64,000 nt of DNA from the NCBI GenBank assembly GCA_947085095.1, contig CAMTVD010000004.1, positions 32,001-96,000 of the forward strand, in the 5' to 3' direction. The stretch comes from an uncultured Thermus sp. Lineage in GTDB: Bacteria; Deinococcota; Deinococci; Deinococcales; Thermaceae. The notes beneath the pieces were generated by a model that saw nothing but the letters and a program-made list of their open reading frames with translations, was not told the origin of the DNA and did no database searches. The translations under genes and the position numbers were made by a program. Shown piece by piece: positions 21,498 to 42,193 of the stretch (the stretch's first letter is position 1; every line of letters starts with the position of its first letter).

Positions 21498-22160
21498 ATG
21501 GAGACCCTGAGGGAAAGGCCTTTGGGGAGGCTCCTCTCCGCCATCGTGGGAGGATTTCTGCTCCTAAGCCTCAAGGGAAGCCTCCGGGGTGTGTACCTGA
21601 AGGGGGAGGTGCCCAAGGGCCCCCTGGTCCTGGCCATGAACCACCACAGCTTTTACGATGGCCACCTGGTCTGGCTCCTGGCGCGGCGCATGGAGCAGCC
21701 CGCAAGCCTCTTGGTGGCCGAGAAAAACCTGAAGGCCTTCCCGGTGCTGAAGCTCCTGGGAGCCCTGGAAGCCAGGTGGGTGAGGGAAGCCCTGCGGCGC
21801 CTCGGGAGGGGGGAGTGGGTGGCCCTCTTCCCCGAGGGGGAAATGCGCTACCCCGGGCCCCTGGGCCCCTTGAAGCCGGGGGCAACGTGGTTGGCCAGGA
21901 AGGCGGGGGTTCCCCTCCTCCCCGTGGCCTGCCGGGTGGCCCTACGGGGCTTTGAGCACCCCGAGGCCTTCCTCCTGGTGGGAAGGCCCCTCCCTCCGGA
22001 GGAGGACCTGGAGAGGGCCCTAGGAGGGCTTCTTCAGGAGCTGGACGAGGCCCTGAGGAAGACCCACCCCCGGGAGGTCCCGGAGGGCTTCCGGGAGGTC
22101 TTGAGGGGCAGGCGGAGCCTGGAGGAGAGGCTCGCCCCCCTGGCGAGGCTCTTTCGGTGA
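21498..22160 (+). CDS. PlsC-family acyltransferase (carotenoid glucoside acyltransferase, CruD-like)
   Basis: NHHSFYD (HX4D) and FPEG motifs; carotenoid cluster context. Confidence 0.85.
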   Translation: METLRERPLGRLLSAIVGGFLLLSLKGSLRGVYLKGEVPKGPLVLAMNHHSFYDGHLVWLLARRMEQPASLLVAEKNLKAFPVLKLLGALEARWVREALRRLGRGEWVALFPEGEMRYPGPLGPLKPGATWLARKAGVPLLPVACRVALRGFEHPEAFLLVGRPLPPEEDLERALGGLLQELDEALRKTHPREVPEGFREVLRGRRSLEERLAPLARLFR

Positions 22161-23176
22161 TGGGCGACTTCTTCTTTGGCGTCTTTCTCTTCCTCCTCCT
22201 GAGGTGGCTCGCCCTCCTCTATAACCTCCTCCGCTTTCCCCGCCTAAGCCCAAGGCCCACACCCCAGGAGGCCAGGGTTTCCATCCTGGTCCCCGCCCGG
22301 AACGAGGCGGAGAACCTGAGGCGGACCCTCCCCACCCTCCTCTGGCAAGGGGCCCTCGAGGTCCTGGTGCTGGACGACCTCTCCGAGGATGGGACCGCCC
22401 GGGTGGCCCAGGAGGTGGCTGGGGGGCACCGCGGCTTCCGCCTCCTCCGGGGGAAACCCCTTCCCGAGGGCTGGCGGGGCAAAAACTGGGCCTGCTGGCA
22501 GCTGGCCCAGGAGGCCCGGGGGGAGGTCCTGGTCTTCACCGACGCCGATGTCTTGTGGAAAGAGGGGGCCTTGGGAGGCCTTCTTGCCGCCTTAGAGGGC
22601 AAGGACCTGGTCTCCGCCCTGCCCAGGCAGGAGGGAGGGCCAGAGGACGTGGTGGTGGCCTTCGTCATGAATGGGCTCTTTTCCTTCCTGCCCCACCCCC
22701 TCCTGGAGGCCTTCAGGGTGGCCAACGGCCAGGTCCTGGCCTTCCCAAGGGAGGCCTACTTCGCCCAAGGAGGGCACCAGGCGGTGCGGGGGGAGGTCCT
22801 TGAGGATGTGGCCCTGGCGAAGCGGGCAGGGCGCTACGGCCTCTACCTGGGGCAAAACCTCTTCCGGGTGCGCATGTACCGGGGCTACGCCCAGGCGGTC
22901 TCCGGCTTCGCCAAGAACTTCCTGGATATCCACCTGAAAAACTCCGCCATCCTCCTGGGCTCGGCTTTTTACCACCTGGCCCTTTACACCCTTCCCTGGC
23001 TCCTCGGTCGGTGGGAGCTTGGGCTTTTGGGCCTCTTGGAGCGCCTGGCCGTTCAGCTCGCCCTAAAAGGCCCCCTCCTTCCCGCCCTCCCCACCCCCCT
23101 GGTCCCCCTGCTTCTCCTGCCTATTTACCTAAGAGCGCTCCTCCCGGGGAAAACCTGGAAGGGCAGGCCCCTTTGA
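22160..23176 (+). CDS. GT2 glycosyltransferase (carotenoid glucosyltransferase, CruC-like)
   Basis: [36 protein letters not shown] motifs. Confidence 0.88.
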
Positions 23177-23229
23177 AAGGTGGGCCAGGCCCATCTTTCC
23201 GGATGAGGGGGCCTGGTAGACTCCTCCTC

Positions 23230-26731
<3,502 letters not shown>

Positions 26732-26757
26732 GCCCATCATGCTATCCCGCCCTGGGA

Positions 26758-26788
26758 CTTTCACATGGCTTTCACAGGCTCTGATAAT
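26758..26788 (+). promoter_or_regulatory. Candidate promoter of the riboswitch/pilus operon with a CTTTCACA direct repeat at 11-bp spacing
   Basis: TTCACA 26760-65, 17 nt, GATAAT 26783-88; CTTTCACA at 26758 and 26769. Confidence 0.55.
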
Positions 26789-26800
26789 ATTGGGTCCTGA

Positions 26801-26874
26801 GGGGAGGCGAAGAGCCCTCAGATCCCGAGATGGGCGCCAGGGGACGAGGGGGAGCCAGTGGCGCAACCGGCCCC
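26801..26874 (+). ncRNA. Cyclic di-GMP-II riboswitch
   Basis: P1 GGGG/CCCC; GC-GAAGA...GA-GC kink-turn; CCCTC..TCCC/GGGA..GAGGG stem; pseudoknot GCGCCA/TGGCGC; 3' GAGCCAGTGGCGCAACCGGCC parallels the recalled class II GAGYUAGUAGUGCAACCGAC with compensatory changes; ends 22 nt before ATG. Confidence 0.85.
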
Positions 26875-26896
26875 GAAACCTTTTGGAGGTGCAAAG

Positions 26897-27502
26897 ATGA
26901 AAAGGAAGCTGGTCGCTCTACTGGCCCTGGTAGCGGGTTTAGCCCTGGCCCAAAACACCGCGAGCCACACCATCACGGTTACGGTTCCCCCAGTCCTTAG
27001 GCTCCATTTGGATGCCTTGGACTACCTCTTTGATTTCACCGCTGACGCCCCAGTCGCAAACAACTCGCTGGGCTTCCCCAAAGCCACGAAAGCAGCCTAC
27101 GAGGCCTTCCTAGACAATGCGTCCAAAACCACCCAACTCTTTGCCCCTACCAGTATTGCTGGGACCAGCAACGACTACGGCACCTTGCGAATCAATACGA
27201 ACCAGGCTCAATGGGTGGTCAAGATTGATACGATTACGGACAACCTTGCTACTCCCCTGTCCAACAGCCGTCTGAAAGTCCACGCTGTAAAGGATACGGG
27301 TAAGGGTTCCTCGCTAACCGGTGAGCCTGGTTCCATGGCCCTTGCGGCCAATACCGCTATCGTTGGAGCAACCAGCAACGGGCAGGGCAGGAGCGTGTAC
27401 AAGCTTTACTACCTTCTGGAAATGAACATCAACGACGCATTTCCACATGCGTCTGACTACAGCAGCACCATCACCGTTAACCTCCTTCTGACTACGCCCT
27501 AA
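26897..27502 (+). CDS. Secreted pilin-like major subunit (putative chaperone-usher type)
   Basis: RBS GGAGGT; Sec signal ALA-Q; N-terminal alternating strand ASHTITVTVP; C-terminal strand YSSTITVNLLLT; low GC. Confidence 0.7.
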   Translation: MKRKLVALLALVAGLALAQNTASHTITVTVPPVLRLHLDALDYLFDFTADAPVANNSLGFPKATKAAYEAFLDNASKTTQLFAPTSIAGTSNDYGTLRINTNQAQWVVKIDTITDNLATPLSNSRLKVHAVKDTGKGSSLTGEPGSMALAANTAIVGATSNGQGRSVYKLYYLLEMNINDAFPHASDYSSTITVNLLLTTP

Positions 27503-27517
27503 CCCTTGGTCGCGCTC

Positions 27518-27551
27518 AAGGCCGCTTCCCGCAAACACCGGAGGCGGCCTT
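27518..27551 (+). terminator. Intra-operon stem-loop after the major subunit gene
   Basis: AAGGCCGCTTCC...GGAGGCGGCCTT then TAT; short U-tract. Confidence 0.65.
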
Positions 27552-27574
27552 TATGCTTGAGGAGGTAGACGAAG

Positions 27575-28315
27575 ATGAAGCGCCCCTGGACCTTACTGGC
27601 AAGCCTGCTAAACCTGGCCCTGGCCCAGGTGGACCTCATCCTCTCCCCCGCCCGGCTGGAGTTCGTCCTGCCTCCTCTGGGCGAGGTGAGCGAGGTGGTG
27701 CGGGTAGCCAACGGCCTAGACCGAGGGGAACCCCTCTCCGTGCGCCTCATGCCCTTCAGGCTGACCCCGAAGGGTGAGGTGCTGGAAAGCCCGGAAAGGA
27801 ATCTATGCCCCCACCTCACCGTGGCCCCCACGGCCTTCACCGTACCCCCCAGGGGGACCGCCGAGGTCCGCCTCACCCTCAAGGCCCCCCCTAAGGGGGA
27901 AGGCACCTTTGCCTGTATGGTGGTCTTCACCGCCCAACCTAGGCCTGTGAGCGCGGGGGGACTAAGGGCTTCCGCCAGCCCCTCCCTTGGCCTCGCCGTC
28001 TACCTCACCCTGAAGGGAACGGAAAGGCCCGCCCTCCGGGCCAGGGTGGGGGGTGAAGGGAAGGCCCTCCCCCTCCTCTTGGAGAACCCCGGGAACGTCC
28101 TCCAGCGCCTCACGGGGGAGGCCCGGGTCTTTGACGGGGCCGGGAAAGAGCTGGCCCGCCTCCCTGTAACTGAGCTCCCCGTCTTCCCCGGGGGGTACCG
28201 GGAGCTTGACCTGGAGGCGGAAGAGCCCCTTCCCCCAGGGCGGTACCGGGTGGTCCTGATCCTGGAAAGCGCCTACGGGCGCTACGCGGCGGAGGGAACA
28301 TGGACCGTGCCTTAG
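27575..28315 (+). CDS. PapD/EcpB-like periplasmic pilus chaperone (two Ig domains)
   Basis: Signal ALA-Q; LSPARLE, VRVAN, TVAPTAFTVPP...EVRL, LENPGN...R and VFPGGYR chaperone-like pattern. Confidence 0.72.
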   Translation: MKRPWTLLASLLNLALAQVDLILSPARLEFVLPPLGEVSEVVRVANGLDRGEPLSVRLMPFRLTPKGEVLESPERNLCPHLTVAPTAFTVPPRGTAEVRLTLKAPPKGEGTFACMVVFTAQPRPVSAGGLRASASPSLGLAVYLTLKGTERPALRARVGGEGKALPLLLENPGNVLQRLTGEARVFDGAGKELARLPVTELPVFPGGYRELDLEAEEPLPPGRYRVVLILESAYGRYAAEGTWTVP

Positions 28316-28890
28316 CCCTTCTCCTTTTCCTCCTCCCCTTGGCCTGGGGGCAGACCCTGAACTGCGACGCCACAGACCTGCGGTACGATTTTTCCGCCTC
28401 TGGCCCCCTCACCCAGGTGACCGTGGCGGGCCAGAACTACTACGTGGCCAACCTGGCCTCCTACCTTCTCCTCCTGGACGGTACCGCCTCCATGCGCTTC
28501 CTCCCCACGGCGGTGGCGGGAGGGACGGGGTACCGGGTAGCGTGCACGGTGACCACCCCGAACCGGGATGCGATCAGGGGAGGGGCGCTTTGTGGGGCGG
28601 GGAGGAAGTTCTGCTTGCGGGTGACGGGCGTTTCCGGCTCCCTCCCTGTGGACTGGACCGGGAGGCTTTACGTCATGGTCCAGGTCATCTCCGGAAACGC
28701 CACCAGCTTCGCGCCCACGCCCATCCTTCTCTCCGCCGTTCCCGACAACCGGGGCCTCGCCGATGTCCAGAGGAACACCACCGCCACCTTGCACATCTAC
28801 TACTGGGTGGAACTGGCCCCGGGCGACTTCTTCCCCACTCTGCCCGCCACGGGCACCCTTACCCTCACGTACCAAGTCCAAGGCGACTAG
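28300..28890 (+). CDS. Secreted minor/tip pilin-like protein, paralog of 26897-27502
   Basis: Signal AWG-Q; DATDLRYDF, FLPTAVAG, RLYV and IYYWVELAPGDFFP align with major subunit motifs; 4 Cys. Confidence 0.68.
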   Translation: MDRALALLLFLLPLAWGQTLNCDATDLRYDFSASGPLTQVTVAGQNYYVANLASYLLLLDGTASMRFLPTAVAGGTGYRVACTVTTPNRDAIRGGALCGAGRKFCLRVTGVSGSLPVDWTGRLYVMVQVISGNATSFAPTPILLSAVPDNRGLADVQRNTTATLHIYYWVELAPGDFFPTLPATGTLTLTYQVQGD

Positions 28891-28895
28891 TCCCC

Positions 28896-31343
28896 ATGCG
28901 CCCCGCCCTCCCTTCCCTCCTCTTCCTCTCCCTGGCCCTGGCCGCTAAGCCCGGGGAGGTCCTGGTCCTCCCCTTCCTGGGGCTTCCCGCTGGAGAGGTG
29001 GAGGTGGTCTCGGACCTCCCCCTTCTCCTCACGCCGGGCTCTGGGGAGGGGCCCCTCTTCGTGGTGGTGGAGGTCCCCAAGGAGGCCCCCCCGGGGCCCT
29101 ACCGGGTCTGCCTGAGGCCCAGGGTGGGAAGCGAGGTCTGCCAAAGGGTAGAGGTGGAAGCCCTCAGGGACCTGGAACTCCGCCCACCCCGGGAGGTCCA
29201 CGGCCAGACCCTCCCCCTCCTCCTGCGCAACCGGGGGAACGCGGCCGAAAGGGTGCACCTGGGAACCGCCGAGGGGAGCGAGGTGGACACGCCCCCCCTC
29301 GGCCTCACCCTGGCCCCGGGGGAGGAGCGGGTGGTGGAGCTTCCCCTCTTCGGCTATGGCCTCCTGAAGCTCGCCCTTTCCTGGGGTGATAGGAAGGCCC
29401 TCCACCTGATCCGGGTCCTCCCCGAAGGAGGAAAGCCCCTCCCCTACACACTCCAAGGGCGGGTGGAGGGGAGGTACCGGGGGGAGGATCCCTTCGCCTT
29501 CCGGCTCTCCCTGGAGGGCCCCCTCGCCCGAGAAGTGGGGGTGGGGTTCGTGGGGGGCACGGAGGCCCTGCGCCTCTCCTTGCGAACGGGCCCCTGGAGC
29601 GCCCGGCTCGGCCTTCTCCCCGCTTTGGAGGGGGGGATGACCTACCGGGAGGGCCCCCACGCCCTCTCCCTGGCCTACCCCTGGGCCCTGGAATGGACGT
29701 ACACGCCCAGGGAAACCTACCGCCTGCACCTTTCCCCCACCTCCCTCGCCCTGGGCTACGCCGACGGCACCTACGCCTTTGGGGCCAGCTTCCCTTGGAC
29801 CTTTACCTGGTCCTTTACAGGGGTTTCCCTCCGCCTGGAGCGCTACGGGGACCCCTACCTCTACGCCCGGTACGAGGGCGGGCTTTACGGGGGCTTCGCT
29901 TCGGGTCCCTGGCGAGGGGAAGTGGGTCTTGCACCTTTCGGACCCTCCGTGAGGCTCGCCCACACGGGTGAAGCCTTCGGGCTCACCTACGCCCTCCAGG
30001 GGGGGTACGCCGGAGGGCCAGAACTGGGCTTCGCCCTGGCCTATCCCCTTTCCCCTTTCACCCTCTCCTTGAGGGGAAACCTTCTGCCCCAGGGGGCCTT
30101 TGGCCTCGGCCTCGGGTACCGGGAGGGGAGTCTTTCGGGAGGCCTGGACCTGAGCCCGGGGAGGATTATGGCCCTGGTGGAGTGGCGGGAGGCCCCTTAC
30201 GCTTTCCGCCTGGAGGGGGGGTACACCGGGGGGTTCCGCTTCGCCCTCTCCGGGAGCTACGCCTTCCGCCTCCCCGTGCCCGAGGGGCTTACCCTGGCCC
30301 TGGGAGGGTACGAGCAGGCCCCGGTGGAGGGATGGGTGGAGGTCCTGGGAAGGCCCGTGGCGGGGGCCCGGGTACAGGGGAGGGAAAGCCGGGTGATCAC
30401 GGACGGGGATGGGCGCTTCCGCCTCTACGTATCCCGAGGGGGAGAGGCTTTGCGGGTGGACCCCCCGCCTGGCCTCCTGGCCTTGCCGGGGGAGGTGCGG
30501 GTCCGCCCCGGGGAAGGCCCCTACCGGGTGGAACTCACCCCAGCGGGGGCGGTGCGCCTCCTCTGCGAGGGGCCGGGGCAGGGGGCCTACCTCCTGGGAC
30601 CCGTGGGCCTCTTCCTGGCCTGCGGCAACCGGGCGGTGGTTCCTCCCGGGACCTACCGGGTGGAGCCCGTGGCCCCGAGGGGCTACCGAGGGGAAGGGCG
30701 CTCCTTGGAACTCGCCCCCCTGGCGGAGGCGGAGGTGGCCCTCAGCTTTACGCCCATCCCGGAGGAAAGACTGGAGGAAGCGAAGCCCCTGAGGGTGGAC
30801 TGGCCTCGGGCCCTCGCCCCGGGAGAGGTGGGGGAGGTCTTGGTGCGGGAAAGGGAGGAAGCGGAGCTCTTTGGGGCGCCCCTTTTGCGGAAGGACAAGG
30901 GCCCGGAGGGGATCCGCCTCCTTTTCCAGGTGCCGTGGGAAGCCCAGGGTTCCCTGGTCCTTAGGGTGAGGGCGGAAGGAAAGGAGGCGAGGTGGGTCGT
31001 GCCCCTGGACCCGGGAAAGCCCCTCCTCACCGTGGAGCTTTCGCCCCCCAGGGCCCCTCTCGGCGGAGAGGTGGAGGTACGCCTCCTCGCCCGCTTCCCC
31101 GCCGAGGGAGCCGAGGTCAACCTGGAGGGGGAAAGGCTCCTCGCCTTAAGCCCTTCCGGCGAGGGCCCCCCCTGGACCTTTGTGGGGAAGCTCCCCGTGA
31201 CCGAAGCCCTCGCCCCCAGGGCCACCCCTTTAGGGAACCTCCGCGCCCTTACCCTGGAGGTGCGGGCCTGGCAGGGGGAGAGGGAGGTGCGAACCAGGGT
31301 GCGCCTTCTTCTGGCCCTACCGGGCGCCACGCAAAGACCCTAA
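28896..31343 (+). CDS. 815-aa usher-like outer-membrane protein (N-terminal Ig domains, beta-barrel, C-terminal Ig/carboxypeptidase-regulatory-like domains)
   Basis: Signal MRPALPSLLFLSLALA; central Gly/aromatic amphipathic strands; GRPVAGARV...TDGDGRF; ORF-track start 28542 overlaps the upstream gene. Confidence 0.62.
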   Translation: MRPALPSLLFLSLALAAKPGEVLVLPFLGLPAGEVEVVSDLPLLLTPGSGEGPLFVVVEVPKEAPPGPYRVCLRPRVGSEVCQRVEVEALRDLELRPPREVHGQTLPLLLRNRGNAAERVHLGTAEGSEVDTPPLGLTLAPGEERVVELPLFGYGLLKLALSWGDRKALHLIRVLPEGGKPLPYTLQGRVEGRYRGEDPFAFRLSLEGPLAREVGVGFVGGTEALRLSLRTGPWSARLGLLPALEGGMTYREGPHALSLAYPWALEWTYTPRETYRLHLSPTSLALGYADGTYAFGASFPWTFTWSFTGVSLRLERYGDPYLYARYEGGLYGGFASGPWRGEVGLAPFGPSVRLAHTGEAFGLTYALQGGYAGGPELGFALAYPLSPFTLSLRGNLLPQGAFGLGLGYREGSLSGGLDLSPGRIMALVEWREAPYAFRLEGGYTGGFRFALSGSYAFRLPVPEGLTLALGGYEQAPVEGWVEVLGRPVAGARVQGRESRVITDGDGRFRLYVSRGGEALRVDPPPGLLALPGEVRVRPGEGPYRVELTPAGAVRLLCEGPGQGAYLLGPVGLFLACGNRAVVPPGTYRVEPVAPRGYRGEGRSLELAPLAEAEVALSFTPIPEERLEEAKPLRVDWPRALAPGEVGEVLVREREEAELFGAPLLRKDKGPEGIRLLFQVPWEAQGSLVLRVRAEGKEARWVVPLDPGKPLLTVELSPPRAPLGGEVEVRLLARFPAEGAEVNLEGERLLALSPSGEGPPWTFVGKLPVTEALAPRATPLGNLRALTLEVRAWQGEREVRTRVRLLLALPGATQRP

Positions 31344-31352
31344 ACTGAAGGG

Positions 31353-32234
31353 GTGGCGAAAATCCGGGTGGGCACGGCCAGCTGGACGGACGAGACCCTC
31401 CTCAACTCGGGATGGTACCCTCCCGAGGTGCGCCACCATCCCGAGAAACGCCTCCGGTACTACGCCCAGTTCTTTGACACCGTGGAGGTGGACAGCACCT
31501 TCTACGCCCTGCCCCGCCCTGAGGTGGTAGCCAAGTGGGCGGAGAGGACCCCGGAAGGTTTCCTCTTCCACGTGAAAGCTTATTCCGCCTTCACCGGGCA
31601 CGGCCTCGAGGCGGGAGCCCTCCCCAAGGACCTCCGGGCCCTGCTTCCCAGAAAAGAGGGCCACCTAACCCAGCGGGAGGTGCCCAAGGAGGTGGTGGAG
31701 GAGGCCTGGGGGCGCTTCTTCGCCGCCTTGGAGCCCCTTAGGGCGGCGGGGAAGCTGGGCTACCTTCACTTCGGCCTCCCCCCCTGGACCGAGCCCAAGC
31801 CCCGGAGCTTCCAGTACCTGGAGCACCTGGCGGAAAGGACCCAGGGCTACTGGGTGGCGGTGGAGTTCCGCAACCCCAAGTGGTACGTGGCCTGGGGTTT
31901 TGTCAAAAAGGAGCTCCTTCGCCTGGGCCTCATCCACGTGAGCGTGGACGCCCCTCCCCACCCCGAGGCCCCGCCCCGGGTCCTCGAGGCCACCCACCCG
32001 GTGGCCGTCCTCCGCTGCCACGGCCGCAACGCCGAAACCTGGAAGGGTCCCCACACCAGGCCCTACGAGCGCTTCAACTGGCGTTACAGCGAGGAGGAGC
32101 TAGAGGACCTGGCCCAGGCCGCCCGCGCCCTGGAGCAGGAGGCGGAGAAGGTCTTCGTCATCTTCAACAACAACTACGGCACCCAAGGGGTGGAGGCGGC
32201 CTCGAGGCTCAAGGTCCTTCTGGGCCTTGGCTAA
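31353..32234 (+). CDS. DUF72 (YecE-like) protein
   Basis: VGTASW, YAQFFDTVEVDSTFY, VEFRN, HGRN, FNN motifs. Confidence 0.9.
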   Translation: MAKIRVGTASWTDETLLNSGWYPPEVRHHPEKRLRYYAQFFDTVEVDSTFYALPRPEVVAKWAERTPEGFLFHVKAYSAFTGHGLEAGALPKDLRALLPRKEGHLTQREVPKEVVEEAWGRFFAALEPLRAAGKLGYLHFGLPPWTEPKPRSFQYLEHLAERTQGYWVAVEFRNPKWYVAWGFVKKELLRLGLIHVSVDAPPHPEAPPRVLEATHPVAVLRCHGRNAETWKGPHTRPYERFNWRYSEEELEDLAQAARALEQEAEKVFVIFNNNYGTQGVEAASRLKVLLGLG

Positions 32235-42119: not shown

Positions 42120-42193
42120 TGGCTGGGGCGCGTGGACTCGAACCACGACCGGCGGATCCAAAGTCCGCTGTCCTGCCATTAGACGACGCCCCA
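42120..42193 (-). tRNA. tRNA-Gln(TTG)
   Basis: TGGGGCG...GCGGA-CTTTGGA-TCCGC...GGTTCGAGTCC...CGCCCCAGCCA cloverleaf, 74 nt, encoded CCA. Confidence 0.97.

Follow-up and report, generated by a model that had tools for sequence, protein, structure and literature searches.

Does the four-gene locus at positions 26,897 to 31,343 of a Thermus contig encode a pilus built by donor-strand exchange, and which assembly route would it use? The stretch analysed here (the window) comprises 64,000 nt from an uncultured Thermus sp., namely positions 32,001-96,000 of the forward strand of contig CAMTVD010000004.1 (assembly GCA_947085095.1). An initial annotation, made from the letters alone, had proposed a divergent chaperone-usher-like operon under cyclic diguanylate (c-di-GMP) control. 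Our results favour a reading of this kind: with a probability of about 70%, the four genes build a pilus by donor-strand exchange through a divergent chaperone-usher pathway. Judged from structure prediction and genomic context, the system is real and coherent. It is apparently undescribed; no description was found in the full-text literature searched, from which subscription journals are largely missing.

All four co-oriented genes were recovered as open reading frames (ORFs; Table 1), and each product carries a basic, hydrophobic and AxA-type leader as judged by eye, in agreement with the Sec signals noted earlier. In direct searches none of the four window proteins scored above cut-off in Pfam or NCBIfam, and a sequence search of the PDB with them returned nothing above cut-off. 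The named homologues stem from Thermus species, with T. scotoductus and T. oshimai as example carriers, and are annotated as hypothetical, COG1470 or carboxypeptidase-regulatory-like. According to the proposed mechanism, the subunits would be exported by Sec, as their leaders suggest. The chaperone is predicted to bind each pilin with two strands, its first one and its donor strand, and to fill the groove next to the pilin's last strand, and the terminal immunoglobulin-like (Ig) domains of the barrel protein may recruit and hand over the chaperone-subunit complexes. A translational riboswitch would tie pilin synthesis to a cyclic dinucleotide, and adhesion or biofilm formation is the likely role.

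Predicted pilin, paralogue and chaperone

The assignment of gene 1 as major pilin is strengthened by its AlphaFold2 (AF2) model, an incomplete Ig fold that has a donor strand at its N terminus, obtained from a 61-row alignment with a predicted local distance difference test (pLDDT) score of 96.9. Mature residues 1-15 are confidently placed and lack secondary structure, as expected of a free donor strand. The donor-strand motif reads H-x-V/I-x-V-x-I/V-P. Within it, Pro13 and the hydrophobic residues that alternate at positions 8, 10 and 12 are kept in 51-56 of the 56 rows compared, which exclude five cap-type rows. Donor-strand fibres gave the best fold matches: CfaB came first in Foldseek (E 1.8e-3), and structural alignment with VIA gives TLP-1b (Z 7.8), the Csu pilus (Z 6.4), the cannula (5.9) and CfaE (5.7). 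At the sequence level, profile A6 found no chain in the PDB. None of the 61 pilins matched SCPU (PF05229) at E 0.05, and the archaic control passed (1/1). The pilin has no Pfam match to the WxL domain (PF13731), which turned up only as a neighbouring cluster in the Atlas (score 0.90).

Gene 1 has a GC content of 0.546 and a third-position GC content (GC3) of 0.66; the corresponding values of the other three genes are 0.66-0.71 and 0.83-0.86. In two genomes the pilin is only 52-53% identical, with 81-82% identity in the chaperone and 75-77% in the barrel protein. The low GC content and low identity of the pilin would fit an exchange of alleles, or diversifying selection acting on a subunit that is exposed.

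Gene 3, seen earlier as a paralogue of gene 1, is clearly related to it (hhalign 99.9%, E 1.8e-35), and the alignment begins at mature residue 17 of the pilin. All 13 homologues of gene 3 begin no more than 5 residues from strand A and carry four Cys. As it lacks a donor strand, such a subunit can accept a strand and not donate one, which makes a tip cap the most likely role. Its sequence thus suggests that gene 3 probably encodes a single-domain tip cap or adhesin.

The two-Ig protein encoded by gene 2 had been called chaperone-like, and this role is supported by a predicted donor-strand complex with the pilin. The interface score ipSAE was 0.87 for the complex and 0.00 for the best control; 116 of 157 solved pairs and 2 of 215 mismatched ones attain the mark applied, counts that hold only roughly with custom alignments. 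Separate runs agreed in at least 95% of the contacts, and the partners had pLDDT values of at least 91. In the predicted complex, chaperone residues 2-7, the first strand, lie antiparallel to pilin residues 15-19, and residues 110-122 run along the last strand of the pilin (169-183). Contacts of this kind, as modelled, are the geometry of donor-strand complementation.

Profile comparisons indicate that the chaperone family is homologous to both the WxL (DUF916/DUF3324, WxLIP) and the archaic PapD-type chaperones. Searched against the PDB, the family profile had its best matches in Enterococcus faecium WxLIP1 (9i25 and 9i1y, E 3e-6); EcpB followed at E 0.72, and no PapD or CsuC chain was listed up to E 1. 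With hhalign, the family aligned to five DUF916-like proteins at E 1.4e-21 and to four archaic PapD_N chaperones at E 1.5e-14. These two groups are more distant from each other (E 6e-7) than either is from the family. The 12 window-type rows alone gave nearly equal values of 8e-10 (DUF916-like) and 5e-8 (archaic). Because the DUF916-like set was picked by its similarity to the chaperone family, this comparison is biased, whereas the PDB and Pfam results are free of that bias.

In Pfam, WxLIP_PGBD matched 3 of 28 chaperone members at E 0.01, and the window chaperone matched neither WxLIP model. Among six metagenome chaperones, one that is linked to a barrel gene passed the WxLIP_HBD cut-off (37.4 vs 28.9 bits) and two matched weakly; the chaperone cluster of a relative from Orenia is named DUF3324 in UniRef. 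PapD_N (PF00345) matched 0 of 28 chaperones at E 0.01, with all four archaic controls passing. A C-terminal membrane anchor was not found in the family: there is no hydrophobic tail, and the hydropathy maximum stays below 1.5 in 27 of 28 rows. In a tree of 32 rows the archaic chaperones fall among the family rows without starred support. Its deep forks are open and subject to compositional bias, and it fixes no order of events. Deinococcus members of the family (P0161 and P0165; NC_012529.1, 88292-91508) are annotated as 'FimB/Mfa2 family fimbrial subunit', a label that derives from a marginal Pfam match of 57-72 residues and is probably a misannotation.

The predicted usher-like barrel and the absence of an inserted plug

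For the gene 4 product, AF2 (38 rows; pLDDT 90.8, predicted template modelling score (pTM) 0.59) returned 24 consecutive strands within 276 residues, with a mean strand length of 8.5 and no loop longer than 10 residues. Most of the strands are amphipathic with one clearly hydrophobic face. Foldseek placed FimD at the top (E 2e-10), and VIA aligned 259-283 residues to the FimD and PapC barrels at Z 12-15; the barrel together with two C-terminal domains aligned to FimD 133-833. The second N-terminal domain (mature 73-162) has the predicted fold of domain 1 of pilus chaperones (SafB, YadV, FimC, CsuC; Z 9.1-9.3), and the first C-terminal domain is transthyretin-like (Z 11-12). The usher-like barrel with extra flanking Ig domains, as first suggested, is thus backed by structure prediction and fold search. 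An invariant N-x-G-N motif is present in the second N-terminal domain and also in the second domain of the chaperone.

A weak CooC_C match at residues 484-521 (E 0.0056) is shared by 7 of 38 members. PF00577 matched neither the window protein nor the 38 members at E 0.01, and it was not among the matches listed (25 of 43 families) for 19 distant members. Usher profiles hit the PDB only in Ig and transthyretin-like domains, and a tblastn search of PLSDB with the window usher gave no match. The usher's scores in the ESM Atlas (0.84-0.90, recognition 2127) serve as leads only. Short strands had also been anticipated. They are present in the model, whereas the very short barrel is restricted to the Thermus subfamily: in 22 near rows the barrel region is 275-305 residues long, compared with 372-414 in 16 rows from distant Deinococcota and 420-468 in 27 from metagenomes.

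Ushers are commonly defined by their plug, which is seen as the gate of the pore. Known ushers consist of a 24-strand barrel, an internal plug, an N-terminal domain and two C-terminal domains (bioRxiv 10.1101/2020.12.23.424195). The first reading had made a plugged barrel a condition of its proposal, which the sequence topology contradicts: the 24 strands run uninterrupted, and no inserted plug was found in the window barrel. No score of a plug profile exceeded 4.2 bits in the 52 family rows, compared with 22-43 bits in leave-one-out controls. This profile was built from three archaic Deinococcus ushers. The fold model covers the window protein, and for the longer relatives the absence of a plug is read from that three-sequence profile and from inspection of the sequences. 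This does not overturn the proposed reading but makes the system stand out further. Unlike in PapC and FimD, the idle pore must then be closed in some other way or left open; a terminal Ig domain, a complex of cap and chaperone, or the layers of the envelope could serve to close it. A motif near strands 5-6 of distant members resembled, by eye, the stretch before the plug of archaic ushers. A profile of this motif did not score against those ushers, so that homology of the barrels by sequence is not shown.

A conventionally gated but rearranged usher would offer another explanation. Here one of the terminal Ig domains, the second N-terminal or the first C-terminal one, would fold into the lumen and act as the plug, and the system would be a highly diverged clade of the alternative or archaic type. 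Six Ig domains flank the barrel, and the pTM leaves their positions open; the weak CooC_C match and the archaic PapD_N match of the chaperone profile, together with the place of the archaic chaperones among the family rows of the tree, would also agree with such a descent. Yet no segment resembles the archaic plug, both candidate domains have periplasmic-type folds, and PF00577, PF00345 and PF05229 all fail where their controls pass. We therefore consider a rearranged plug unlikely.

Distribution and relation to known donor-strand pili

A pilin match was found in 14 of 61 genomes searched, the own genome included. Twelve of the 13 others provided orthologous loci, the fragmented G031 being left out, and the order of the four genes is kept in all 12. 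A scan of genome contigs returned only the query's own locus. At greater distance, the Thermus barrel profile had matches at E 0.001 in 77 of the 301 Deinococcota genomes; many of these are weak, and some probably reflect the Ig domains alone. A chaperone-like ORF lies near the barrel gene, in some cases convergently, in 18 of 20 distant Deinococcota loci cut out. With a distant chaperone as query, 74 metagenome loci were fetched, and wherever at least 1.5 kb of downstream sequence was present a barrel-family ORF adjoined the chaperone gene (34/34, at GC 0.33-0.72; 18/34 with HMMER filters on). Their source names include Gemmatimonadaceae, Longimicrobium, a Bacillota metagenome-assembled genome and Orenia metallireducens, which we take to be a diderm Firmicute; membership of Bacteroidota is seen in Atlas clusters only. 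The family thus extends beyond Thermus and beyond thermophiles: its pair of chaperone and barrel is also present across Deinococcota, in Gemmatimonadota and in diderm Firmicutes.

Ushers of the PF00577 type were found in 0 of 32 genomes of the genus and in 11 of 301 of the phylum, within one other family; the E. coli control was positive. The partners of these Deinococcus ushers pass PapD_N and SCPU, and genome G097 contains both an archaic chaperone-usher system and a barrel-family system, at different loci. The window family is a set distinct from the archaic Deinococcus ushers. The idea of a separate clade is in line with this, since PF00577, PF00345 and PF05229 all fail here and pass in genuine archaic Deinococcus systems. 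Chaperone-usher systems, of the archaic kind, have already been reported for the Deinococcus-Thermus phylum (PMC4654587) and are not new there as such. Readings as a type IV or type V pilus were rejected: none of the four proteins has such a Pfam match, and the Mfa2 label goes back to the marginal match described above.

With the archaic (sigma; Csu, CupE) and alternative (alpha; CFA/I, ECP) pili, the system shares a pilin fold with N-terminal donor strand, a two-Ig periplasmic chaperone with predicted complementation, an operon order of pilin, chaperone, minor subunit and barrel, and the weak CooC_C match. In contrast to them it lacks an inserted plug, and its cap has one domain where their tip adhesin has two; the archaic Deinococcus systems moreover match all three Pfam models that the window family does not. 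Like PapC and FimD, the gene 4 product is predicted to have a 24-strand barrel, alignable over its full length, behind which come a helix and Ig domains at the C-terminal end. Its barrel is much smaller (276 residues vs approx. 490 with the plug in PapC, chain range 146-637), and it has two N-terminal Ig domains, one of them chaperone-like, and four C-terminal domains, reduced to two in some relatives.

The WxL/Elr pili of Bacilli consist of the pilin ElrD and the DUF916-DUF3324 chaperone ElrE (bioRxiv 10.64898/2026.10.17.759780). According to the same preprint, WxL pili are confined to Bacillota and their chaperones are disjoint from chaperone-usher ones at E 1e-20; its main text, as far as available, does not mention Deinococcota, Bacteroidota or diderms. 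The window system resembles these pili in its homologous chaperone and differs in that this chaperone is soluble, with no C-terminal transmembrane anchor, that a gene for an outer-membrane barrel is present and that no WxL Pfam match was obtained. TLP-1a and TLP-1b are described as orphan donor-strand fibrils from pond water, of unknown source and assembly route, and the nearest predicted TLP-1 relative (UniProt A0A2M8AA21) comes from a Flavobacteriales bacterium (PMC11494351). The VIA match between TLP-1b and the pilin covers 142 residues at a root-mean-square deviation of 3.4. The two proteins differ in length (237 vs 183 residues) and are 15% identical. Neither profile A6 nor a search with one distant pilin of the family revealed a sequence link between them, which leaves TLP-1 as a lead only.

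These relationships bear on the question of whether the barrel merely secretes or anchors the subunits, with the fibre polymerising outside the cell without ordered usher catalysis, like TasA, TLP-1 and WxL fibres. The best VIA match of the pilin is indeed an orphan fibril, TasA and archaeal bundling pili were listed as well, and the best PDB match of the chaperone profile is WxLIP1; the WxL chaperone nucleates its polymer without an usher (bioRxiv 10.64898/2026.10.17.759780). Against this, a 24-strand barrel with a helix behind it and Ig domains aligning to the C-terminal domains of FimD, and a cap without donor strand, fit growth from the base through an usher, and chaperone and barrel genes are coupled at 34/34 and 18/20 loci. 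Extracellular polymerisation is thus quite improbable. That the genes yield no long pilus and only a short complex of few subunits at the surface, an adhesin stub or an envelope-associated structure, is very improbable: the system is known from genes alone and archaic pilin relatives were first named spore-coat proteins (SCPU), yet a self-compatible donor strand on gene 1, a hairpin that would favour gene 1 and the high variability of its product between close relatives fit a polymeric, exposed major subunit.

Several observations weigh against a pilus assembled by a chaperone-usher-like route. All structural evidence is predicted, and the filament, its place on the cell and its role are themselves proposals. 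The VIA scores of the pilin lie below Z 8, a range that common arrangements reach, and the score of the pilin-chaperone complex may reflect its likeness to solved chaperone-subunit complexes. For the barrel, 22-strand TonB-dependent receptors tie in Z while aligning 239-257 residues, and in a wide VIA search they came first (14.7 vs 13.6 for FimD). By sequence, the barrel protein showed no homology to PF00577, PapC or FimD. Three sequences underlie the plug profile, and at a pTM of 0.59 the domain positions are loose enough for a terminal Ig domain to sit in the lumen. Finally, G017 (L078) has a short barrel gene and neither major pilin nor riboswitch, the barrel gene contains a stop in G033 (L028) and G016 (L034), and the pilin gene is split in G031 (L014-L017). 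A barrel fragment was also noted in G136 (L077).

Taken as modelled, the Thermus system works like a chaperone-usher pathway and yet is neither of the PapC/FimD type (plug, PF00577) nor archaic (SCPU, PapD_N) nor a WxL system (anchor, WxL domain). A natural 24-strand usher without plug would make the necessity of the plug testable, and the 276-residue form from a hot-spring organism offers a compact structural target. The chaperone family, which has homologues among both WxL and chaperone-usher proteins and is still accompanied by an usher, bears directly on the question of a common origin of the two pathways. A bolder proposal is tentative and, in our estimate, falls somewhat short of an even chance. 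It holds that the family is a widespread and so far unrecognised third branch of chaperone-guided donor-strand pili among diderms other than Proteobacteria (Deinococcota, Gemmatimonadota, diderm Firmicutes and probably Bacteroidota) with a truly plug-less 24-strand usher and a chaperone linking proteobacterial chaperone-usher pili with Gram-positive WxL pili, that WxL pili arose by loss of outer membrane and usher and gain of a chaperone anchor, and that the branch may build orphan fibrils like TLP-1. For Thermus biology, the operon provides a candidate adhesin system that is not of type IV and would be controlled by a cyclic dinucleotide, and a function can be proposed for many proteins called hypothetical, COG1470, carboxypeptidase-regulatory-like or FimB/Mfa2.

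Leader region and surrounding loci

Table 1. Features of the operon and its leader (window positions) and of the paralogous operon on contig C14.
Feature	Position	Strand	Remarks
Conserved direct repeat over the -35 box	26755-26772	+	possible site of a regulator
Sigma70-like promoter	26760-26788	+	1 found vs 0.1 in shuffles
c-di-GMP-II-clan aptamer	26794..26881	+	best family RF03169 (c-di-GMP-II-GAG), 44.5 bits vs gathering score 40
Shine-Dalgarno site	26885-26889		3 nt downstream of the aptamer end
Gene 1, predicted major pilin	26897..27502	+	201 aa, 183 mature; signal peptide, N-terminal donor strand of approx. 15 residues, incomplete Ig-like fold
GC-rich hairpin with weak U-tract	27518..27553	+	after gene 1
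Gene 2, predicted soluble two-Ig periplasmic chaperone	27575..28315	+	246 aa
Gene 3, pilin paralogue without donor strand	28300..28890	+	196 aa; four conserved Cys
Gene 4, predicted usher-like barrel protein	28896..31343	+	815 aa; two N-terminal Ig domains, 24-strand barrel (mature 169-444), short helix, four C-terminal Ig/transthyretin-like domains
Paralogous four-gene operon, contig C14	118365-123684 (L080 5363-10684)	-	277-aa secreted Cys-containing protein, 298-aa chaperone, 161-aa pilin-like protein, 1035-aa barrel

The riboswitch placed upstream of the operon by the first reading was recovered as an aptamer of the c-di-GMP-II clan in the 5′ leader, above gathering threshold (Table 1); RF01786 itself scored 42.4 bits on it, under its cut-off. 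Of the 12 orthologous loci, 11 have a clan aptamer above gathering score immediately before the pilin gene and one has a degenerate copy; a clan aptamer is also present in 5 of 9 distant loci searched. In the Thermus genome studied, all three RF01786 matches precede pilin-like genes, two of them as a tandem pair on contig C2 before a small secreted gene with donor-strand motif. Tandem clan aptamers also lie directly before a major pilin in L022 (8132-8363), with no intervening gene. The ligand would be a cyclic dinucleotide, presumably c-di-GMP; PMC13715770 concerns a different riboswitch variant. The Shine-Dalgarno site is covered by a weak hairpin, which is paired to approx. 0.5 when folded unconstrained and to approx. 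0.9 with four P1 pairs forced. As the pseudoknot was not modelled and the hairpin is absent in some orthologues, no conclusion is drawn from this hint of an OFF switch. The direct repeat over the -35 box occurs in 11 of 12 orthologous leaders and gives four regex matches in the whole genome.

The hairpin reported after gene 1 is well defined (−32 kcal/mol, z −2.92, 4 of 200 shuffles as good), and a strong hairpin follows the pilin stop codon in all 12 sequences folded (the window and 11 orthologous loci). It is likely to act as partial terminator or mRNA stabiliser and would then favour the pilin over the downstream genes.

The second, paralogous operon on contig C14 adjoins a convergent gene for a 389-aa lipoprotein-like product; no riboswitch was found at the C14-type operon in four other genomes. 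The small secreted protein on contig C2 (43843-44465; L081-L083), behind the tandem c-di-GMP-II riboswitches, combines a pilin-type N-terminal strand with a shortened body and is a candidate minor, terminator or anchor subunit of the window pilus. This small gene lies immediately upstream of the operon in 4 of 12 related loci.

In one hot-spring metatranscriptome the share of words was 0.07. The contigs, mostly from relatives, cover 26 of 30 bins, neighbouring genes included, and are not evidence of transcription. The operon is flanked upstream by a carotenoid-type cluster (21498-25790), with putative phytoene desaturase-like and isopentenyl isomerase-like genes, and by a divergent 2-thiouracil desulfurase/DUF1722 gene (25787-26740); a DUF72 gene (31365-32234) follows downstream, both as named by Pfam. 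This context is common to 3 of 12 related loci, with DUF72 alone in one more, which indicates that the operon moves or is rearranged. A tRNA gene lies further downstream on the minus strand (42123-42193).

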